Below, piece after piece: positions 5,644 through 46,757 of a DNA stretch of 63,017 bases (within the stretch, counting starts at the first letter, position 1; each line of letters starts with the position of its first letter). The stretch lies in the NCBI GenBank assembly GCA_041739675.1, contig JBGSNL010000037.1:1-63017 (forward strand). The letters are read 5' to 3'. Both the position numbers and the translations under genes were made by a program. The notes below the pieces were generated by a model. It saw only the letters and a list, made by a program, of their open reading frames with translations. It did not search any database and was not told the DNA's origin. Source of the stretch: a bacterium (GTDB taxonomy: Bacteria; UBA10199; 2-02-FULL-44-16; DYJF01).

Positions 5644-6396
5644 TTATCCGTATCTTCCTGTTATATAGTCCTCGGTTTTTTTGTCGGACGGCGCCGTAAA
5701 TATCTGATTCGTGCGCCCGAATTCAACGAGATCCCCCATGAGCATGAACCCGCAGTCTTCCGACACCCTTGCCGCCTGCTGCATGTTGTGCGTGACGATA
5801 AGAATGGTGAAGTTGCTTTTCAGATCCTGCATCAGTTCTTCGATGCGCGCCGTTGCCTGCGGATCGAGAGCCGAGCACGGCTCGTCCATGAGAAGAATGT
5901 CCGGTTTTGTGGCAACCGCTCTTGCGATGCAAAGCCTCTGCTGCTCCTCCCCTGAAAGCGTCAGGGCGTTTTGTTTCAACCTGTCTTTGAGTTCCCCCCA
6001 CAACCCGACCGCATTGAGACTTTCAGCCACGATTTTCTCCAGATCGCTTTTCTTCGTTGTGCCGTGTATGCGCGGCCCGTAAGACGCATTGTCGAAAACG
6101 CTCAAAGGGAAGGGGTTGGGTCTCTGAAAGACCATGCCCACCCGCCTTCTTAGTGCCATGAGGTCAATTCCGCCGCCGATGATCTCGTTCCCGAATATTT
6201 TGACCTCCCCCGTTGCCCGGCTTCCGATTATGAGATCGTTCATTCTGTTGAAGACCCTGAGGAGCGTTGATTTCCCGCAACCGGACGGCCCGATGAGCGC
6301 GGTTATTCTCTTTTCCGCGACGGCCAGATTTATCTCTTTGAGCGCCTGAAAATCGCCGTAGTAAAAACAGAGGTTTTTGCAGCTTATCGCATCCAT
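5644..6396 (-). CDS. pstB: phosphate ABC transporter ATPase
   Basis: [37 protein letters not shown]. Confidence 0.95.
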
Positions 6397-40116: not shown

Positions 40117-40754
40117 ATTGGATCCTGATAGGCATCGTTCTTACCACTTTTATAGTCCTTGGCTCGTCGAGAATTGTGCCCCGAATAAAGGCGGTGGCGG
40201 TCCAGGGCGCACTTCTTTCGGTAATGCAATTTATAATGCGAGGGGCAAGATTCGATCTTCACGGCTCTTTTCTCCTTATAATAACGCTTGTCATAAAAAC
40301 GATTATCATACCCGTTCTCATTTTCAGAACCATTAAGGGGCTCTCCACAAATGTTGATAAAGAACCGATAATTGGGAACCACTTGCTCTCGTTGACGGCG
40401 GGTTTGATCGCCGTGTTCAGCTTTTCAAGCATAAAGGTATTTCCCATTATATCGGAACCCGGGATTTCTCCGTTTCTGGTGCCTTCAGCGCTGACAACCG
40501 TTCTCACGGGGTTTCTAATACTTGTCACCAAGGCCAAAGCTACGAATCAGGTGTTGGGATTTTTGGTTTTGGAAAACGGCATATTCACATTCGGAATGAC
40601 CATCATCTCGGAGTTTCCTATGATGGTTGAGATAGGCGTGCTGCTCGATCTTGTGGTCGGCGTATTTATTATGGGTATCATGATTTATCACATAAATAAA
40701 ACATTCGATAATATCGATACGAGGACCCTGTCGGTCCTGGGAGACGTTGAGTGA
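40113..40754 (+). CDS. hyfE: HyfE-like membrane subunit
   Basis: QVLGFLVLENG, VEIGVLLDL. Confidence 0.82.
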   Translation: MNWILIGIVLTTFIVLGSSRIVPRIKAVAVQGALLSVMQFIMRGARFDLHGSFLLIITLVIKTIIIPVLIFRTIKGLSTNVDKEPIIGNHLLSLTAGLIAVFSFSSIKVFPIISEPGISPFLVPSALTTVLTGFLILVTKAKATNQVLGFLVLENGIFTFGMTIISEFPMMVEIGVLLDLVVGVFIMGIMIYHINKTFDNIDTRTLSVLGDVE

Positions 40755-42181
40755 TATTGACTATCTTCGTCCCTTTATTTTTGGGAATCATAACGCTGTT
40801 TCTCAGGGACAACAAAAGAATCGGGGCACGCAGGACGCTTCTCATCACGGGCGCCTTGTTGCATAACGCAGGAACCATATCCATTTTGTTTTTTAACAAG
40901 TGGTTATCGTGGGCCCCCTATTTGCAGGTGGATGGCCTTGGGTTTATCTTCCTTATTTTAATCAGCATAATATTTACGGTCACTTCGTTTTACAGCCTGG
41001 GATATTTCACTCTGAAACGAAAATATGCCGAAAAAGAGTCGGGCGGCCACATTTATGTGTCATGCATGCTTTTTTTCCTCAGCGCCATGACATTGGCGGT
41101 TTCGACGACTCACATCGGAGTGCTGTGGATTGCCATTGAATCCACAACCCTTGCGTCGGCGCCGCTGATATATTACCACCAGAGCCGTCGATCGCTCGAG
41201 GCGGCGTGGAAATACCTTTTGATTTGCTCTGTCGGAATAGCAATTGCGCTATTGGGCCTCTTTTTTGTCGCGGCATCGGCCAGGGGAACGGGGGCCGAAC
41301 TCTCGCTTTCATCCCTTATCGGACACGCAAGAGAGCTCGATGTCAGACTGTTACGGATAGGTTTCATTCTTGTTTTGATCGGTTTCGGAACGAAGATGGG
41401 ACTTGCCCCTTTTCATAATTGGCTGCCGGACGCACACAGTGAGGCGCCGTCTCCGATCTCCGCTCTTTTGTCGGCAACGCTTCTCAATTGTGCGTTGTTG
41501 GGTATTATAAGATTTTATCAGATCTGTCTTGCGGCCGGGCTGGGAGCTTTTGCGAACCGGCTCATGATGGTTTTTGGATTGATCTCCCTTTTTATTTCCG
41601 CCGTCTTTATAACAAATCAGAAAGATTACAAACGCCTTCTCGCATATTCCAGCATCGAACACATGGGGATTATAACTCTCGGAATAGGTATCAGTGCAAA
41701 TTTTGCGAGCTTGCTTCACGTGGTGAGCCATTCTCTCACGAAGGCGTTATTGTTTCTTACGGCCGGAAACATCCTTCTTTTATACAGGACAAAATCGATT
41801 TCCGATGTCGGCGGACTTTTAAAGACGTCTCCCCAGACGGGCATTTTGTTTATTATCGGCGGTTTCGCAATAATCGGCTCGCCTCCTTTTTTGCCGTTTA
41901 TCAGCGAATTTTTAATTTTGCGCGACGGAATCAATGGGGGACATATTTTGGCCATGTCGCTTTATTTGCTTTTCTTGGGCATTATTTTTGTGTCGATGTC
42001 CATGGCAATTTTGAAAATGGTCCAGGGAAAACGGCGAGAAACGATTGCGGGCGATCTGCCCAAAATTGTTATCGTTCCCCAGGTTGTCCTGGCGGTTGCA
42101 ATTGTCATTATGGGTTTGTATCTCCCGCAATATGTGAGTGATATTATTCGGTCGGCAACGCGGCTCCTAACCACTCTATGA
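40751..42181 (+). CDS. hyfF: HyfF-like antiporter subunit
   Basis: ESTTLASAPL, EAAWKY, WLPDAHSEAP, LAYSSIEHMG. Confidence 0.85.
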   Translation: MILTIFVPLFLGIITLFLRDNKRIGARRTLLITGALLHNAGTISILFFNKWLSWAPYLQVDGLGFIFLILISIIFTVTSFYSLGYFTLKRKYAEKESGGHIYVSCMLFFLSAMTLAVSTTHIGVLWIAIESTTLASAPLIYYHQSRRSLEAAWKYLLICSVGIAIALLGLFFVAASARGTGAELSLSSLIGHARELDVRLLRIGFILVLIGFGTKMGLAPFHNWLPDAHSEAPSPISALLSATLLNCALLGIIRFYQICLAAGLGAFANRLMMVFGLISLFISAVFITNQKDYKRLLAYSSIEHMGIITLGIGISANFASLLHVVSHSLTKALLFLTAGNILLLYRTKSISDVGGLLKTSPQTGILFIIGGFAIIGSPPFLPFISEFLILRDGINGGHILAMSLYLLFLGIIFVSMSMAILKMVQGKRRETIAGDLPKIVIVPQVVLAVAIVIMGLYLPQYVSDIIRSATRLLTTL

Positions 42182-43644
42182 CGAAGAATTTTGCAGTTTT
42201 AAAGAACGCTAGGTTGTGCCGAAGAGATGACATTCCGATTCTCGATATCGATAATTGGAGAAACTCTATTGTAGATATGTGCAAGAGCCACGAGGGTAGA
42301 ATCGTATCCCTATTTGGGAATATGAAGAAAGGCGGCGGGGCCAGGCTCTACTCAATATTGGGCATCGATTCGAAAGGTGAACTCCGGATCGCCGCAACGG
42401 ATGTCGTCGGGAACGCGTATAATTCAATAACAAACGACCTCGTGCAGGCCCATCTTTTTGAGCGAGAAATATTTGAAAACATCGGTGTTGAGCCGACGGG
42501 GCACCCGTGGCTCAAACCCGTCAGAAAATCGTCCGGATACAATTATTATTCCCTGGAGGGAGATTCCATTCATGAGGTCGCCGTGGGGCCCGTTCATGCC
42601 GGCGTCATCGAGCCCGGGCATTTCCGTTTTCAATGTCACGGTGAAAAGGTGTTCAATTTGGAGATACACCTCGGTTATCAGCGGAGGGGTGTGGAGAACA
42701 TGATGATCTCCGCAAAACCCTCCTCAAGGAGGGTCCTCGCCGAATCTGTTGCCGGGGATAGCGTGATTGCCAACGGGCTTGCCTATTGTCACGCGGTTGA
42801 GGGGCTGGGATCCAGAGAAGTGACTCAACGCGCGAGGGTAATCAGGGCAATAAGTCTTGAGCTGGAACGAATTGCAAATCACGTCGGCGATTTGGGTGCC
42901 ATTGCAAATGATGTCGGTTTTTTGCCGGCAGCGTCGTATTTTGGAAGGATCAGGGCCGAATTTCTGAATCTGCTTTTGGAGCTTACCGGCAATCGTTTTG
43001 GGCGTTCTCTCTTAAGACCTGGCGGCGTCGCTTTTGATATCGATCCCGACATGGTGGAAAAATTCAAGCTGAGGATTACAAGGGGAGTGTCGGACGCGGT
43101 TGACACGGCAGAATTGATGTTTTCGAATCCTTCTGTTGTTGCACGACTTGAAAAGACCGGCATTGTGACTCATGATCAGGCGAAAGAGATAGGAATGGTG
43201 GGCGTTGCCGCAAGGGCAAGCGGTCTTGAACGGGATGCGCGCCGCAACTATCCTGCGGGAATGTATAGATTCAAAGAAATTGTAATTGCAAAATGCTCTT
43301 CGGGAGATGTTTTTGCGAGAACCCGCGTCAGGTATATCGAAATTAAAAAATCGGCCGATCTGATACTTGAGTTGCTCGGCAAAATGCCTGCAGAAAAGAT
43401 TTATCATCCCATTGAGGCCCTTGATAAATCATCAGTTGTTGTCAGCATTATTGAAGGTTGGCGCGGCGAGATCGTTCATGCCGCCATGACGAATGAAAAC
43501 GGCGAAATTTCATTTTACAAAATTGTCGATCCTTCCTTTCACAATTGGACGGGACTTGAATTGGCGCTGCGGAACGGACAAATCTCCGATTTTCCGCTTT
43601 GTAACAAGAGTTTTAATTTATCCTACGCGGGTTACGATTTATAA
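42178..43644 (+). CDS. hydrogenase-like large subunit (NuoC/D-type) lacking Ni-binding motifs (EhrL)
   Basis: ERE..GHPW, VGPVHAGVIEPGHFRF, EGWRGE, DPSFHNW; the L1 site reads ESVAGD and the L2 site reads NKSFNLSYAG, with no CxxC. Confidence 0.85.
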   Translation: MTKNFAVLKNARLCRRDDIPILDIDNWRNSIVDMCKSHEGRIVSLFGNMKKGGGARLYSILGIDSKGELRIAATDVVGNAYNSITNDLVQAHLFEREIFENIGVEPTGHPWLKPVRKSSGYNYYSLEGDSIHEVAVGPVHAGVIEPGHFRFQCHGEKVFNLEIHLGYQRRGVENMMISAKPSSRRVLAESVAGDSVIANGLAYCHAVEGLGSREVTQRARVIRAISLELERIANHVGDLGAIANDVGFLPAASYFGRIRAEFLNLLLELTGNRFGRSLLRPGGVAFDIDPDMVEKFKLRITRGVSDAVDTAELMFSNPSVVARLEKTGIVTHDQAKEIGMVGVAARASGLERDARRNYPAGMYRFKEIVIAKCSSGDVFARTRVRYIEIKKSADLILELLGKMPAEKIYHPIEALDKSSVVVSIIEGWRGEIVHAAMTNENGEISFYKIVDPSFHNWTGLELALRNGQISDFPLCNKSFNLSYAGYDL

Positions 43645-43647
43645 TTT

Positions 43648-44424
43648 ATGTTCAGAATACTGAGAACGCGAATAAAGCAGGGGCACCAGACGCTTGCATT
43701 TCCTCCCAAAAAGGAGATGCCGGAAAGATTTCGGGGACTGCCAAAGGTTTATCCTGAAAAATGCGATAATTGCCAACTTTGCACCAAGGTTTGTCCGACA
43801 AATGCAATTTCTCTTTCTCCTTTGACGCTTGATCTCGGAAAATGCGTTTTCTGCGAAGAGTGTGTCAGTTCCTGCCCGACGAAAGCGGTTGAATATTCCA
43901 AAACGCTGTGGATGTCAGCGGGCAAAAGAGACGACCTGCTTTTAGATGGTAAGGAGTTGAAACTTGCCGAGGCGCTTAATGAAAAAACGAGAAAATTGTT
44001 CAATCGGTCTTTGATGTTGCGGGTCGTGACTGCGGGGAGCTGCAATGGATGCGAAATGGAATTAAATGCAATCGGCAACATTCAGTTCGATATATCGCGC
44101 TTTGGTGTGCAAATTGTGGCGTCCCCCAGGCATGCAGACGGTCTCATAGTCACGGGACCGGTCACCGATAATATGAAGCTGGCTTTGGAAAAAACCTATG
44201 CAGCAGTGGCAAATCCCAAAATCGTCATTGCTGTCGGGGCCTGTGCCATTAGCGGCGGTCCGTTTGAAAATAGCAGCTGTGCGAATAAGGGTGCCGGATC
44301 GATCGTGCCCGTTGATCTCTACATCCCGGGTTGTCCGCCTCATCCGTTGACGATAATGGGTGGTATTTTGAGAATGTTAGGCCGGATTTCGGCGAACGGG
44401 AACCGACAGGTAAGCAAGGTTTGA
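43648..44424 (+). CDS. 2x[4Fe-4S] ferredoxin fused to a NuoB-like small subunit (EhrS)
   Basis: CDNCQLCTKVCP, CVFCEECVSSCP, GSCNGCE, SPRHAD, GACAISGG, IPGCPP. Confidence 0.88.
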   Translation: MFRILRTRIKQGHQTLAFPPKKEMPERFRGLPKVYPEKCDNCQLCTKVCPTNAISLSPLTLDLGKCVFCEECVSSCPTKAVEYSKTLWMSAGKRDDLLLDGKELKLAEALNEKTRKLFNRSLMLRVVTAGSCNGCEMELNAIGNIQFDISRFGVQIVASPRHADGLIVTGPVTDNMKLALEKTYAAVANPKIVIAVGACAISGGPFENSSCANKGAGSIVPVDLYIPGCPPHPLTIMGGILRMLGRISANGNRQVSKV

Positions 44425-44466
44425 TGCCGTCTTTACAGGCTTTACTAATCATGCTAGTTAAAAAAT

Positions 44467-44784
44467 ATGGTATCTGCCAAAAGAAAGGCTGCAATTGTAA
44501 AGGCCGTTAAAAAAAGAAGAAAAAGGGTTCGTGATATGGCAGTTGCCCATAAAGGCGGGAAATGCCAACTTTGCGGTTACAATAAATGCAGAGAATCGCT
44601 GGAATTTCACCATATTGTGAAGGATAAAAAAGGTTTTGGAATTTCAGAAAAAGGATATACGAGATCTTGGGCCGCAATAAAGTCGGAACTAGACAAATGC
44701 ATTTTGTTATGTGCAAATTGTCATCGTGAATGGCACGCGGGGCTGATTAATGAAGGCTCGCTCACGTTCTTTGTAAATATATAA
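44467..44784 (+). CDS. free-standing HNH endonuclease
   Basis: KGGKCQLCGYNKC..LEFHH...KCILLCANCHREWH Zn-finger HNH core; basic N-terminus. Confidence 0.85.
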   Translation: MVSAKRKAAIVKAVKKRRKRVRDMAVAHKGGKCQLCGYNKCRESLEFHHIVKDKKGFGISEKGYTRSWAAIKSELDKCILLCANCHREWHAGLINEGSLTFFVNI

Positions 44785-44792
44785 ATTTGTAT

Positions 44793-45121
44793 TCCGCAGT
44801 AGCTCAGTCGGTCAGAGCAGGTGACTGTCAAAAGGCAGCCTTCATTGGAAACAATGAAGTGGCAAGCGGGTGAATTCAGGGAAACCTGTCCCGAGCATTT
44901 TAAAAACTCGGCATGGCAATCCTGAGCCAAGCTCTCTGATGTAAAAGGCAGGGAGAAGGTGCAGAGACTAGGAGGTGACGAAAGAATAATCCTCCACCAG
45001 CGCCCGCCACCTAAGTTTTCGAAGTTTTGGGAAAATAGGGTGAAGAGATAGTCCACGCCGGCCGGAAACGGTTGGATCTCGTGTAATCACCGGGTCGGGG
45101 GTTCGAATCCCTCCTGCGGAG
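44793..45121 (+). tRNA. tRNA-Asn(GUU), intron-split; exons 44793-44828 and 45084-45121
   Basis: Joined exons give TCCGCAG-TAGCTCAGTCGGTCAGAGC-A-GGTGA-CTGT^TAA-TCACC-GGGTC-GGGGGTTCGAATCCCTC-CTGCGGA-G, a full cloverleaf. Confidence 0.9.
44829..45083 (+). ncRNA. group I self-splicing intron (IC-like), 255 nt, no ORF
   Basis: P1 CTGT^C-AAAA-GGCAG with U.G at the splice site; P GAATTCAGGGAAAC, Q AATCCTGAGCC, R GGTGCAGAGACTA, S AAGAGATAGTCC; P3 GCGGGTG/CGCCCGC; P7 GACTA/TAGTC; GAAA-capped P2 and P9; terminal G 45083. Confidence 0.9.
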
Positions 45122-45127
45122 CAAGAG

Positions 45128-45152
45128 AAACGGCCTTATAGGCCGTTTTTTT
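45128..45152 (+). terminator. intrinsic terminator after tRNA-Asn
   Basis: AAACGGCCT-tat-AGGCCGTTTTTTT. Confidence 0.85.
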
Positions 45153-45248
45153 GTTTTTACATGGCCATTAAAAATCGGGCTGGCCTGAATTTGCCGTTGA
45201 CGATCCCGCCAAAGTGCTGGTAAATGCGGAAAATATCAGGAGGTGCCT

Positions 45249-46757
45249 ATGGGTAGCGAAGGAGTTCGTGCGGCGGAACCAGGTCCCGAAAATTTCATGT
45301 ACCTGCCTTGGGCCGATGTGGACAGACAGACATCAAGGCGATTGCCTGTGCCACCTGCCAGATATGACGCCGAAATTTCAAACGCGTACAAGTCAACGTG
45401 CGGCGGCAACAACCTGCCGGCAAATATCTACGCCGCGTATGCGGGTTCCTTCAGAGATGGTCCTTTCAGAAAAGGCGCCTGGGGTAGACGGATGTCATAT
45501 GCTCGGGATGCTCTCGGCGGGAATGGAGCTCAGTGGGCCCAGGCGGATTTTACGACATGGTTGGATGGCGGCAGAAGATGTGAAGAGGGATCGCCCGGTT
45601 ATAACAGATTCGTTCTTACGCAGAGGGCATTTGCAGGCGTAAGTTCGTCGGTGAGTCGCCATGTTCAGGAAAGTATGAGGTTAGCTACTCAGTCCATGCT
45701 GGACACGCGTCTTTTTCATTATAGCCGCAGGCGAAATCGGATATTGTTCGACGGATCGGTTCTTAACATGCATCAGGAGAAAGGCTGGTTGACCAGCGAC
45801 AGAAGGCTGAGAAACAGGCTGGCCGACCGCGGCGGTTTTGAGGAATTGATGTCGCGAAACAGTTATGGTTTCTACAGGAACCGCGAGGGCGATGATTTAG
45901 TGCTAGGCGACAATTACATTTTATGGGGCACGTTTAGTCCGGCTGTATCGTTTGCGGCGCAGTTTGTAAAAGGAGAAGACAACCGCCAGACGGTGAGTGG
46001 ACAGGCACTTGTAATACGAAATGGGCAAGGCATATGGCATCCGGTTGTCGAACACGCGGGTGACGTCCTCGCTTACTTGCGCGAACTCGAAACGAGGGAG
46101 ACGCCCATATCTGAAAAACCGCTGTCCTTAAGCGAGGTGCTGGGCAGGTACGGCTACCTGTATTTGGGCAATGGCAGCGGCAAGAAAGCAGGCGAGACTT
46201 TCAAACGCGCTGCAATGACATACGAGAGTGTGGGTAGAATATGGAGCATGGATGAAATAGGTGTATCCGGCGGCGTCGCTATCACAAATAGACTATGGTA
46301 CAGGGCCGCGGAGCAATATTATCTCGCTTCGGCGGTATATGTGGCTATGGGCGAGTTCAGCTCCGCAGGAGGGATGCTTCACGACATGACGAGATGCCTT
46401 ATAATGGCGGGCATTGAGTATTCCGACAAGGTTCAAAAGATCGAGACGGCTGTTGCGAAACTCGGCAGCAATCACAACGGTAGAAATAGTGCGCCTCCTC
46501 GTGCTGGCGGAGGACAAGCCGTGGCCGGCGGTTCATCAGTTACGGGATTGGCAGAAACCGGCGAAACAAGCTCCGGTGCGGCGTCGGGTGCCAGCCCGTA
46601 CTCAAGGGCGCTGCCTGTCACGCCGCAGGGAAGGCTTGCGCGAGCGGCAGGATTTTTCATATCGCGTTCGCGGGTAATGGCTCAATATCGGGCACCGCGA
46701 CATGCGTGGTTGTCGGGCGCCATTCTCTTCAATCCAAAATTGGCGTTGGCGCGTTGA
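45249..46757 (+). CDS. hypothetical protein
   Basis: Long ORF with SD AGGAGG; possible TPR-like helices near the C-terminus and a G/S/A-rich tail; no family recognised. Confidence 0.6.
   Translation: MGSEGVRAAEPGPENFMYLPWADVDRQTSRRLPVPPARYDAEISNAYKSTCGGNNLPANIYAAYAGSFRDGPFRKGAWGRRMSYARDALGGNGAQWAQADFTTWLDGGRRCEEGSPGYNRFVLTQRAFAGVSSSVSRHVQESMRLATQSMLDTRLFHYSRRRNRILFDGSVLNMHQEKGWLTSDRRLRNRLADRGGFEELMSRNSYGFYRNREGDDLVLGDNYILWGTFSPAVSFAAQFVKGEDNRQTVSGQALVIRNGQGIWHPVVEHAGDVLAYLRELETRETPISEKPLSLSEVLGRYGYLYLGNGSGKKAGETFKRAAMTYESVGRIWSMDEIGVSGGVAITNRLWYRAAEQYYLASAVYVAMGEFSSAGGMLHDMTRCLIMAGIEYSDKVQKIETAVAKLGSNHNGRNSAPPRAGGGQAVAGGSSVTGLAETGETSSGAASGASPYSRALPVTPQGRLARAAGFFISRSRVMAQYRAPRHAWLSGAILFNPKLALAR

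Follow-up and report, generated by a model that had tools for sequence, protein, structure and literature searches.

A split tRNA-Asn gene with a group I intron and an adjacent free-standing HNH endonuclease gene

The window considered here is a stretch of 63,017 bp that makes up the whole of one contig (C82) of a bacterial genome assembly (G000), which amounts to 1.91 Mb in 88 contigs and is 94.64% complete and 1.87% contaminated. On its forward strand a small gene for an HNH endonuclease is followed, after only 8 nucleotides (nt), by a tRNA-Asn gene with the anticodon GUU, the two halves of which are separated by a group I intron that carries no sizeable open reading frame (ORF). It is probable that this is a functional intron of the self-splicing type, that it resides in what is apparently the only tRNA-Asn(GUU) gene of the genome, and that it is paired with a free-standing homing endonuclease.

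The interrupted tRNA gene and its ribozyme

The 5' exon of the tRNA-Asn gene (44793–44828, 36 nt) contributes the 5' strand of the acceptor stem, the D arm, the 5' strand of the anticodon stem and the loop residues C32, U33, G34 and U35. The 3' exon (45084–45121, 38 nt) begins with U36, A37 and A38 and continues through the 3' strand of the anticodon stem, the variable loop, the T arm and the 3' strand of the acceptor stem to the discriminator G at 45121 (G73); the terminal CCA is not encoded. A discriminator G73 is an identity element of tRNA-Asn, as is known from work on E. coli. When the exons are joined (44793–44828 with 45084–45121), ARAGORN recognises a canonical tRNA-Asn(gtt) of 75 nt, and the predicted spliced junction reads ...GACUGU^UAAUCACC..., the caret here and below marking a splice site. 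A DNA contig of another organism, from sequencing run X3, holds both exons joined exactly between 44828 and 45084, and the predicted ligation product is thus a naturally occurring tRNA-Asn sequence. In its interrupted form the gene escapes notice, since neither ARAGORN in its default mode nor the Rfam tRNA model calls a tRNA at the locus.

The intron itself (44829–45083, 255 nt) lies between U35 and U36 on the forward strand. The Rfam group I model (RF00028, Intron_gpI) matches positions 44819–45075 of the same strand over its full length (model positions 1–253) with 87.2 bits against a gathering score of 50 (E 7e-21), and this is the sole match in the genome. There is no sense ORF of more than 34 amino acids in the intron, and an antisense ORF of 111 amino acids is without a Pfam match.

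The secondary structure, which consists of the tRNA cloverleaf and helices P1 to P9, was drawn on the window sequence and its pairs were then counted over an alignment (A3) of 15 interrupted tRNA-Asn genes whose introns carry no ORF. Ten of these come from the order to which the window belongs, four from further families in the class and one from a Saccharicenans metagenome-assembled genome (MAG). Standard pairs occupy 94.9% of the 1258 cells, in comparison with 82.1% when partners are shuffled and at most 44.7% when partners are slid, a control that favours a structure taken from one of the aligned sequences. Changes on both sides are seen at 47 of the 86 pairs, and the observed measures were reached in none of 500 shuffles. 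Within the tRNA the acceptor, D, anticodon and T stems are paired in 100% of the aligned sequences, and the acceptor, D and anticodon stems show covariation.

The first helix, P1 (44825–44838), is formed by the exon residues CUGU and the first intron residue, C, which pair with the guide sequence GGCAG across a loop, L1, of just four residues (AAAA). The 5' splice site is marked by the wobble pair U44828.G44835, which is U.G in all 15 aligned introns, and the adjacent pair made by intron residue +1 covaries (CG in ten, UA in two, AU in one, GC in one and unpaired in one). The P2 hairpin with its GAAA loop (44841–44858) shows changes on both sides at all seven pairs, and the 5' strand of P3 (44866–44872), whose partner is at 45001–45007, is 94.3% paired with covariation at two pairs. 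The domain formed by P4, P5 and P5a together with P6 and P6a (44876–44960) contains a P4 that is 100% paired and nearly invariant, and covariation in P5a and P6a. The 5' strand of P7, GACUA (44966–44970, pairing with 45049–45053), represents the presumed guanosine-binding helix. As P4, P6 and P7 are invariant or nearly so, they are uninformative on pairing in either direction. Between P7 and the 3' strand of P3 lies an extra hairpin with a conserved loop (44971–44995), which resembles P7.1, covaries at three of five pairs and is missing in three of the 15 relatives (G027, G029 and G031). P8 (45009–45041) likewise covaries at three of its five pairs.

The 3' end of the intron (45055–45083) comprises P9.0, in which 45055–56 pair with 45081–82, the P9 hairpin with a GAAA loop (45058–45075), which covaries, and the terminal G45083, which is invariant in the aligned introns. 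The AC/GU pairing of P9.0 is present in all 15 sequences and both of its pairs covary, the first as AU, GC and GU and the second as CG, AU, GC and UA. No convincing P10 pairing is visible, and it is probably the anticodon stem that aligns the exons for splicing. Such alignment of exons by the anticodon stem is reportedly found with the Anabaena intron.

Across the 15 genomes both the splicing determinants and the helices are kept by compensatory change. An earlier note, made from the sequence alone, had described a tRNA-Asn(GUU) split at 35/36 by a 255-nt group I intron, and its coordinates prove to be exact. The core that it reported is confirmed by the Rfam match and by covariation in P3, P5a, P6a and P8, its U.G pair at the 5' junction, its P9.0 pairing and its terminal G recur throughout the alignment, and its expectations that splicing would rebuild the anticodon and that standard tRNA scans would miss the gene agree with the ARAGORN and Rfam results.

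The nuclease gene in the tRNA leader

The earlier note had also called the intron ORF-less, which holds for the intron itself, but it overlooked the homologous nuclease gene immediately upstream. This free-standing gene (44467–44784, forward strand, 105 amino acids) ends 8 nt before the tRNA and is identified by Pfam matches and by homology to intron-borne copies. The protein scores 26.7 bits with HNH_2 (PF13391; cut-off 21) and 23.4 bits with HNH (PF01844; cut-off 21.4), and NCBIfam provides no model for it. In a comparison of its profile with solved structures, only the HNH motif was matched, in McrA (6ghc, E 4e-4) and in a group II intron maturase (6me0, E 1e-3). The gene is the sole copy of its kind in the genome, and its product is 54–61% identical to the copies found by tblastn inside the tRNA-Asn intron of loci L008, L002 and L011. 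All 31 positions with a conservation of 95% or more across 86 family members have the conserved residue, and the His, Asn and His of the HNH motif and its Cys pairs (C33, C36, H48, H49, C82, N84, C85 and H86) are kept as well.

Just upstream of this gene is a promoter-like block (44432–44460, forward strand), made up of TTTACA, a 17-nt spacer ending in TGC, and TAGTTA, which ends 6 nt before the HNH start codon. Its conservation is what singles it out. The pattern TTTACA-17 nt-TAG(A/T)(G/T)A precedes tRNA-Asn in seven of the eight loci of a second alignment (A2), with or without an HNH gene, is placed 75–80 nt directly upstream of tRNA-Asn in relatives that have no HNH gene, and also precedes the intron-less tRNA-Asn of G008, G015 and G016. 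It may act as a promoter.

A second conserved element, a leader motif resembling CGYTCTTTRAA, occupies together with its spacer positions 44763–44792, and the final codons of the HNH gene and its stop are part of it. It is found 10–20 nt before tRNA-Asn in all eight A2 loci and at the same place in L004, L006, L009 and L018. Because it also occurs at tRNA-Asn genes that have neither intron nor HNH gene (L203, L204, L205 and L209), it represents native leader sequence, and on the same ground the idea that it is the footprint of a deleted HNH gene was rejected. The motif may serve in processing or as part of a promoter. Set as it is between the promoter-like block and the native leader in A2, the HNH ORF looks like a cleanly inserted or deleted segment of about 310 nt. 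No remnant of a tRNA 5' half, which would be expected had exon 1 been duplicated, was found upstream of the HNH gene.

Between the HNH stop codon and the tRNA there is no terminator-like site. A hairpin followed by a T run, which has the form of an intrinsic terminator, was found by the terminator scan beyond the tRNA at 45124–45152 on the forward strand, and relatives have a hairpin and T run at the same place. Hence, the layout suggests that the HNH gene and the tRNA are co-transcribed.

The wider nuclease family was followed by a scan of one genome per species with a five-member alignment, which returned at least 600 pattern matches, 542 of them confirmed by tblastn, and the best 80 loci were examined. 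With introns allowed, ARAGORN calls an interrupted tRNA in 79 of these best 80, the exception (L099) being cut by a contig end. Its labels are Asn(gtt) for 53 loci, Thr for 22, Tyr for two and Pro and Ser for one each. The junction CUGU^...G^UAA nevertheless fits 75 of the 79, and in the remaining four ARAGORN had mis-set the 3' exon and exon 1 still ends in CUGU; RF00028 was passed by all 20 loci sampled. The MAGs concerned are labelled Acidobacteriota, Nitrospirota, Elusimicrobiota, Omnitrophota, Planctomycetota, Bacteroidota, Bacillota and others, and the suggestion in the earlier note that introns at 35/36 of tRNA-Asn belong mainly to Patescibacteria has to be given up.

Amongst 88 loci with an HNH match, 78 have the nuclease within the intron, eight have it upstream of the tRNA (one pair of these being the same genome fetched twice) and one has it downstream; the one locus that remains is truncated and has no tRNA call. 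An intron-borne ORF begins a few nucleotides past the 5' splice site, fills L1, continues across the guide sequence and P2, and ends at P3. Outside the ORF the HNH-bearing intron of L008 is 72.9% identical to the window intron over 229 of its 255 nt by blastn, and judged by such similarity the window intron is the same ribozyme as the HNH-bearing form, with an L1 of 4 nt. Comparison by eye and by blastn also led to the rejection of two separate intron types, one ORF-less and one long, in the relatives, which instead share a single ribozyme lineage, in some members of which L1 holds an ORF. One intron of 295 nt (L017, in genome G035) retains only the beginning of the HNH ORF in L1, with its ribosome-binding site, ATG and a few codons, and is a collapsed form of an intron-borne HNH gene.

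A survey of the class, which covered 41 genomes (the window's own and 40 relatives), connects the nuclease closely with the interrupted gene. Genome-wide matches to the family occur in eight of the 41, and all seven strong matches, as well as a broken copy in G006, are at an interrupted tRNA-Asn. The family is thus present in eight of the 16 genomes with a split gene and in none of the ten with an intact one, and none was found near the nine intron-less tRNA-Asn genes that were fetched (a tenth, at a contig edge in G024, was left out). Four weaker HNH paralogues (36–74 bits) lie on contig C15 of genome G020 at 6376–46066, away from the tRNA-Asn locus, in a region that may be phage-like.

It is possible, if somewhat doubtful, that the HNH gene is at present a passive passenger that takes no part in moving the intron, whether as a decaying relic of a former intron ORF or as a small nuclease of unrelated origin. 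Breakage or decay is evident in two of the order's five copies: that of G001 (L016), from the same genus, has lost its start codon (now ATA), has changes at a zinc-ligand Cys, a Tyr and the motif Asn, and is accompanied by a deletion of about 40 nt that includes the promoter-like block, and that of G006 (L005) is frameshifted. Moreover, four genomes of the order and one of two alleles in G020 keep the intron without any HNH gene. Such a passenger would not, however, be expected to look like the copies of the window, G019 and G020 (L101), which are all intact. Amongst these three the proportion of non-synonymous differences (pN, 0.09–0.22) is far below that of synonymous differences (pS, 0.66–1.0, which is saturated and in some pairs rises slightly above 1 as an artefact of the rough estimate), and the protein has thus been under long-standing constraint; owing to the saturation, pN and pS are compared directly and no dN/dS is given. 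The intactness of the window copy at every conserved position, the grouping of the four full-length free-standing copies of the order in one supported clade (100/91) and the restriction of strong family matches in the 41 genomes to interrupted tRNA-Asn genes likewise argue against a passenger.

That clade comes from a tree of 86 HNH proteins built on 92 columns and rooted at the midpoint. Other free-standing copies, from Saccharicenans, a Patescibacteria MAG and an Omnitrophota MAG, fall in three other places, so that the label free-standing or intron-borne changes four times on the tree, two or more of these changes being required by well-supported branches. A rather unlikely alternative for the history of the gene is that the free-standing state is ancestral, a leader-borne nuclease having later invaded L1 elsewhere rather than escaped from the intron. 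The indel seen in G020 spans almost exactly the ORF, and the stop codon is borrowed from the native leader, which makes the gene look like a mobile ORF insertion; this direction is also described as the proposed origin of mobile introns in the review PMC3984707. Against it stands the scatter of free-standing copies over four separate places amongst 78 intron-borne ones, with the clade of the window's order forming a branch of a large unresolved group. With 92 columns and a midpoint root only, the tree does not settle the direction of the move.

The two G020 alleles lie on separate contigs of an assembly that is 95% complete and 5% contaminated, L101 (on C96) with the HNH gene and L006 (on C86) without it. 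Their upstream flanks are identical at 139 of 140 positions and their exons are the same throughout, whereas the introns agree at 221 of 241 positions, with compensatory changes in P2, and the first 77 nt downstream agree at only 58, the terminators having diverged. This pattern fits a cassette exchange by recombination within the population, and the alleles could also represent two strains binned together.

Copy number, splice register and surroundings

ARAGORN and Rfam alike find 35 tRNAs in the assembly, and neither detects an uninterrupted tRNA-Asn in its 94.64%-complete sequence. A blastn search with the joined tRNA gives no second locus, and a relaxed pattern for an uninterrupted anticodon and T arm is matched in none of five genomes (G000, G006, G007, G009 and G019), one of which, G007, is 100% complete in three contigs. 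The suspicion that this might be the only tRNA-Asn gene is thus upheld as far as the assembly reaches. Over the 41 genomes the gene is interrupted in 16, a strict uninterrupted pattern is matched in ten, both forms occur in none and neither form in 15, and as no genome has both, the split gene behaves as the working copy. With introns allowed, ARAGORN makes nine further calls of split tRNAs in G000, none of which coincides with the sole RF00028 match; the only one inspected, a tRNA-His on contig C59, is a poor cloverleaf inside coding-like sequence and was rejected.

The reading favoured here, of a functional intron in the only tRNA-Asn gene with a homing endonuclease as its partner, also has several observations weighing against it. 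For the ribozyme, drawing the structure on the window's own sequence gives it an advantage over the slid partners, the aligned sequences are mutually related, so that counts across relatives are not independent, and P7 has all five pairs invariant and hence gains no support from covariation. For the nuclease, the decay of the G001 and G006 copies indicates that it is dispensable for the host, the window copy may be inactive too, and a promoter scan with the E. coli consensus did not call the block at 44432–44460. For the copy number, tRNA-His, tRNA-Ile and tRNA-Phe were not found in G000 either and rRNA primer motifs are also absent, from which it follows that some RNA genes are probably unassembled and that, in an assembly of 94.64% completeness, a further tRNA-Asn is possible. 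Finally, the run search found no RNA sequencing run carrying the stretch. Contigs of run X12, which is guessed to be RNA, span both splice sites in unspliced form, and as they may be DNA and come from relatives they count neither way.

The gaps of a fragmented assembly, together with the lack of an RNA run for the locus, also speak for the view that the split gene is a dead relic whose intron no longer splices, the working tRNA-Asn being hidden in the unassembled 5% of the genome. This is highly improbable, since compensatory changes over 15 genomes have kept all of the helices and both of the splice-site determinants, the joined exons fold as a perfect cloverleaf, and the uninterrupted pattern is matched in none of the 16 relatives with a split gene, the complete G007 failing the relaxed pattern as well.

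Hardly any credence can be given to exons that form tRNA-Thr(UGU) with the intron between 33 and 34, as ARAGORN with introns allowed would have it (tRNA-Thr(tgt) i(35,255), the intron shifted 2 nt in the 5' direction): in the window both registers offer a U before the intron and a G at its end, but the Thr register would pair U44826 with an A in P1 rather than with a G (by the Rfam alignment and by the pairing drawn here), in contrast to the U44828.G44835 of all 15 introns, would end the intron in A or U in L018, L003 and L019, where the 35/36 register ends in G throughout, would disrupt the covarying P9.0, and would give a second tRNA-Thr(tgt) to a genome that already has one and is otherwise without tRNA-Asn, whilst CUGU^...G^UAA is possible in 75 of 79 HNH-linked loci. 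On sequence grounds the intron is placed at 35/36, where joining is predicted to rebuild the anticodon GU^U.

The remainder of the neighbourhood is made up of protein genes. Upstream of the HNH gene, at 40751–44424, are genes for subunits resembling those of complex I or of membrane-bound hydrogenases, with Complex1_49kDa/30kDa domains and an Oxidored_q6 with a ferredoxin domain. Directly past the terminator is an ORF of 504 amino acids (45243–46757, forward strand), for which Pfam and NCBIfam searches gave no family. The DNA of the contig is found in full in one hot-springs metagenome run, which may be its source, and the nearest named relative of one 555-amino-acid protein of G000 is from a MAG labelled Bdellovibrio sp., with 80% identity.

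A possible case of collaborative homing

The favoured reading can be set out as a sequence of events, in which self-splicing, co-transcription and the activity and target of the nuclease are all deduced from the DNA. A single transcript would start at the 44432–44460 block and run through the HNH ORF, the 8-nt spacer and the tRNA halves with their intron to the terminator at 45124–45152. The tRNA body would fold and its anticodon stem would hold the exons together, whilst C32 to U35 would pair with the guide sequence as P1 and present U35.G at the cleavage site. An external guanosine would then attack after U44828, following which G45083, placed by P9.0, would enter the P7 site in the guanosine's stead and the exons would be ligated to give G34-U35-U36. 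The chemistry assumed here is that of group I introns as given in PMC3984707 and in the introduction of Williams 2020 (bioRxiv 10.1101/2020.01.27.920355). RNase P would free the tRNA from the leader that bears the HNH sequence.

The HNH protein, for its part, would cut intron-less tRNA-Asn genes of related cells. With this locus as the template for repair, the intron would be copied together with the nuclease gene, 44 nt away from the insertion site, and the resident gene, in which the intron splits the target, would escape cutting. Such a scheme amounts to collaborative, or trans, homing, and the layout that such homing involves, an ORF-less intron with a free-standing endonuclease gene next to it, is the one seen at the locus. 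Collaborative homing is proposed here as an account that would fit the association with interrupted genes, the constraint on the protein and the series of decaying copies. A more tentative thought is that the nuclease, having left the intron or never entered it, lives in the 5' leader of the pre-tRNA as one half of a two-part selfish chromosomal element that is still homing amongst related populations. Persistence under such continued homing would come from repeated invasion, or from a service to the host, such as assistance in the folding of the intron or the guarding of the only tRNA-Asn locus.

Collaborative homing has been described for two phage systems (PMC3984707), and T4 mobE/I-TevIII is treated in PMC2790892. 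The window resembles these in having an ORF-less intron and a separate endonuclease beside an interrupted gene, with the HNH gene found only with interrupted alleles in the genomes searched. It differs from them in that the element is on a bacterial chromosome and in a tRNA gene, rather than a phage protein gene, and in that its HNH protein is close to those encoded within introns at the same site. Those HNH-bearing introns share with the window the tRNA, the insertion site, the ribozyme lineage and the HNH family, but hold the nuclease in L1, whereas in the window L1 has 4 nt and the HNH gene is in the leader upstream of exon 1. The Synechocystis tRNA-fMet intron is another mobile group I intron located in the anticodon loop of a bacterial tRNA. 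It was reportedly found by Bonocora and Shub in 2001 to encode I-Ssp6803I, which targets the tRNA gene; this nuclease is said to be intron-encoded, in another tRNA, and to belong to a different nuclease family from the HNH protein of the window.

The classical bacterial tRNA introns belong to subgroup IC3 according to the text of Williams 2020, where they appear as Leu.3Ug, fMet.2Ug, Ile2.5Ug and Arg.5Ug, in tRNA-Leu(UAA) at 34/35, tRNA-fMet, tRNA-Ile2(CAU) and tRNA-Arg(CCU), and where 17 new settings bring the four classical ones to a total of 21. As with the window intron, these are small anticodon-loop ribozymes with a U-1.G pair in P1, a terminal G and exons presumably aligned by the anticodon stem. 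In contrast, they occupy other tRNAs and other loop positions than that after U35, and the window intron has the extra hairpin between P7 and P3'. In the Williams nomenclature the present setting would be Asn.4Ug; "Asn" is absent from the running text of that paper, in which the new settings are named only in Table 1 and Fig. 3. The short "introns" that PMC5733544 reports from other tRNAs of cyanobacteria are different from the tRNA-Asn intron. The literature searches turned up neither a description of a group I intron in tRNA-Asn nor one of a free-standing HNH gene beside a tRNA intron. The intron is an ordinary member of a common kind, and the placement of the nuclease in the leader gives a variant layout of a type of mobile element that is already known.

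The class to which the genome belongs is rich in tRNA group I introns, with an RF00028 match in 24 of the 41 genomes and six in G031. In tRNA-Leu(UAA) (L012, L013, L102 and L105) the intron follows U33 (CU^...G^UAAAA) rather than lying at the classical 34/35, and tRNA-Lys(CUU) (L014 and L015) is also split after U33. Introns in tRNAs with a CAU anticodon (L107, L108, L110 and L116) are 639–666 nt long and may hold ORFs. In an Omnitrophota MAG, about 600 nt downstream of the split tRNA-Asn, there is a match to the c-di-GMP-I riboswitch (L026, 2686–2768; 41.9 bits).

One consequence of the locus concerns annotation. As default tRNA finders miss the split gene, this genome and many MAGs look as though they had no tRNA-Asn, and ARAGORN with introns allowed mislabels the gene as tRNA-Thr. 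A second concerns the nuclease family, a single family that is found inside the intron in most phyla and beside it in the window's order and at no fewer than three further places; amongst close relatives its copies range from intact through decaying to deleted. These states would make up an inferred natural series for the ways in which group I introns and homing endonucleases come together and separate. The locus could also be used to test whether an essential tRNA gene present in one copy is shielded by an intron from the nuclease that is the intron's partner. Were the two-part, still-homing element to prove real, it would provide a cellular case of collaborative homing in a tRNA gene, with intron-encoded and free-standing states of one nuclease family.

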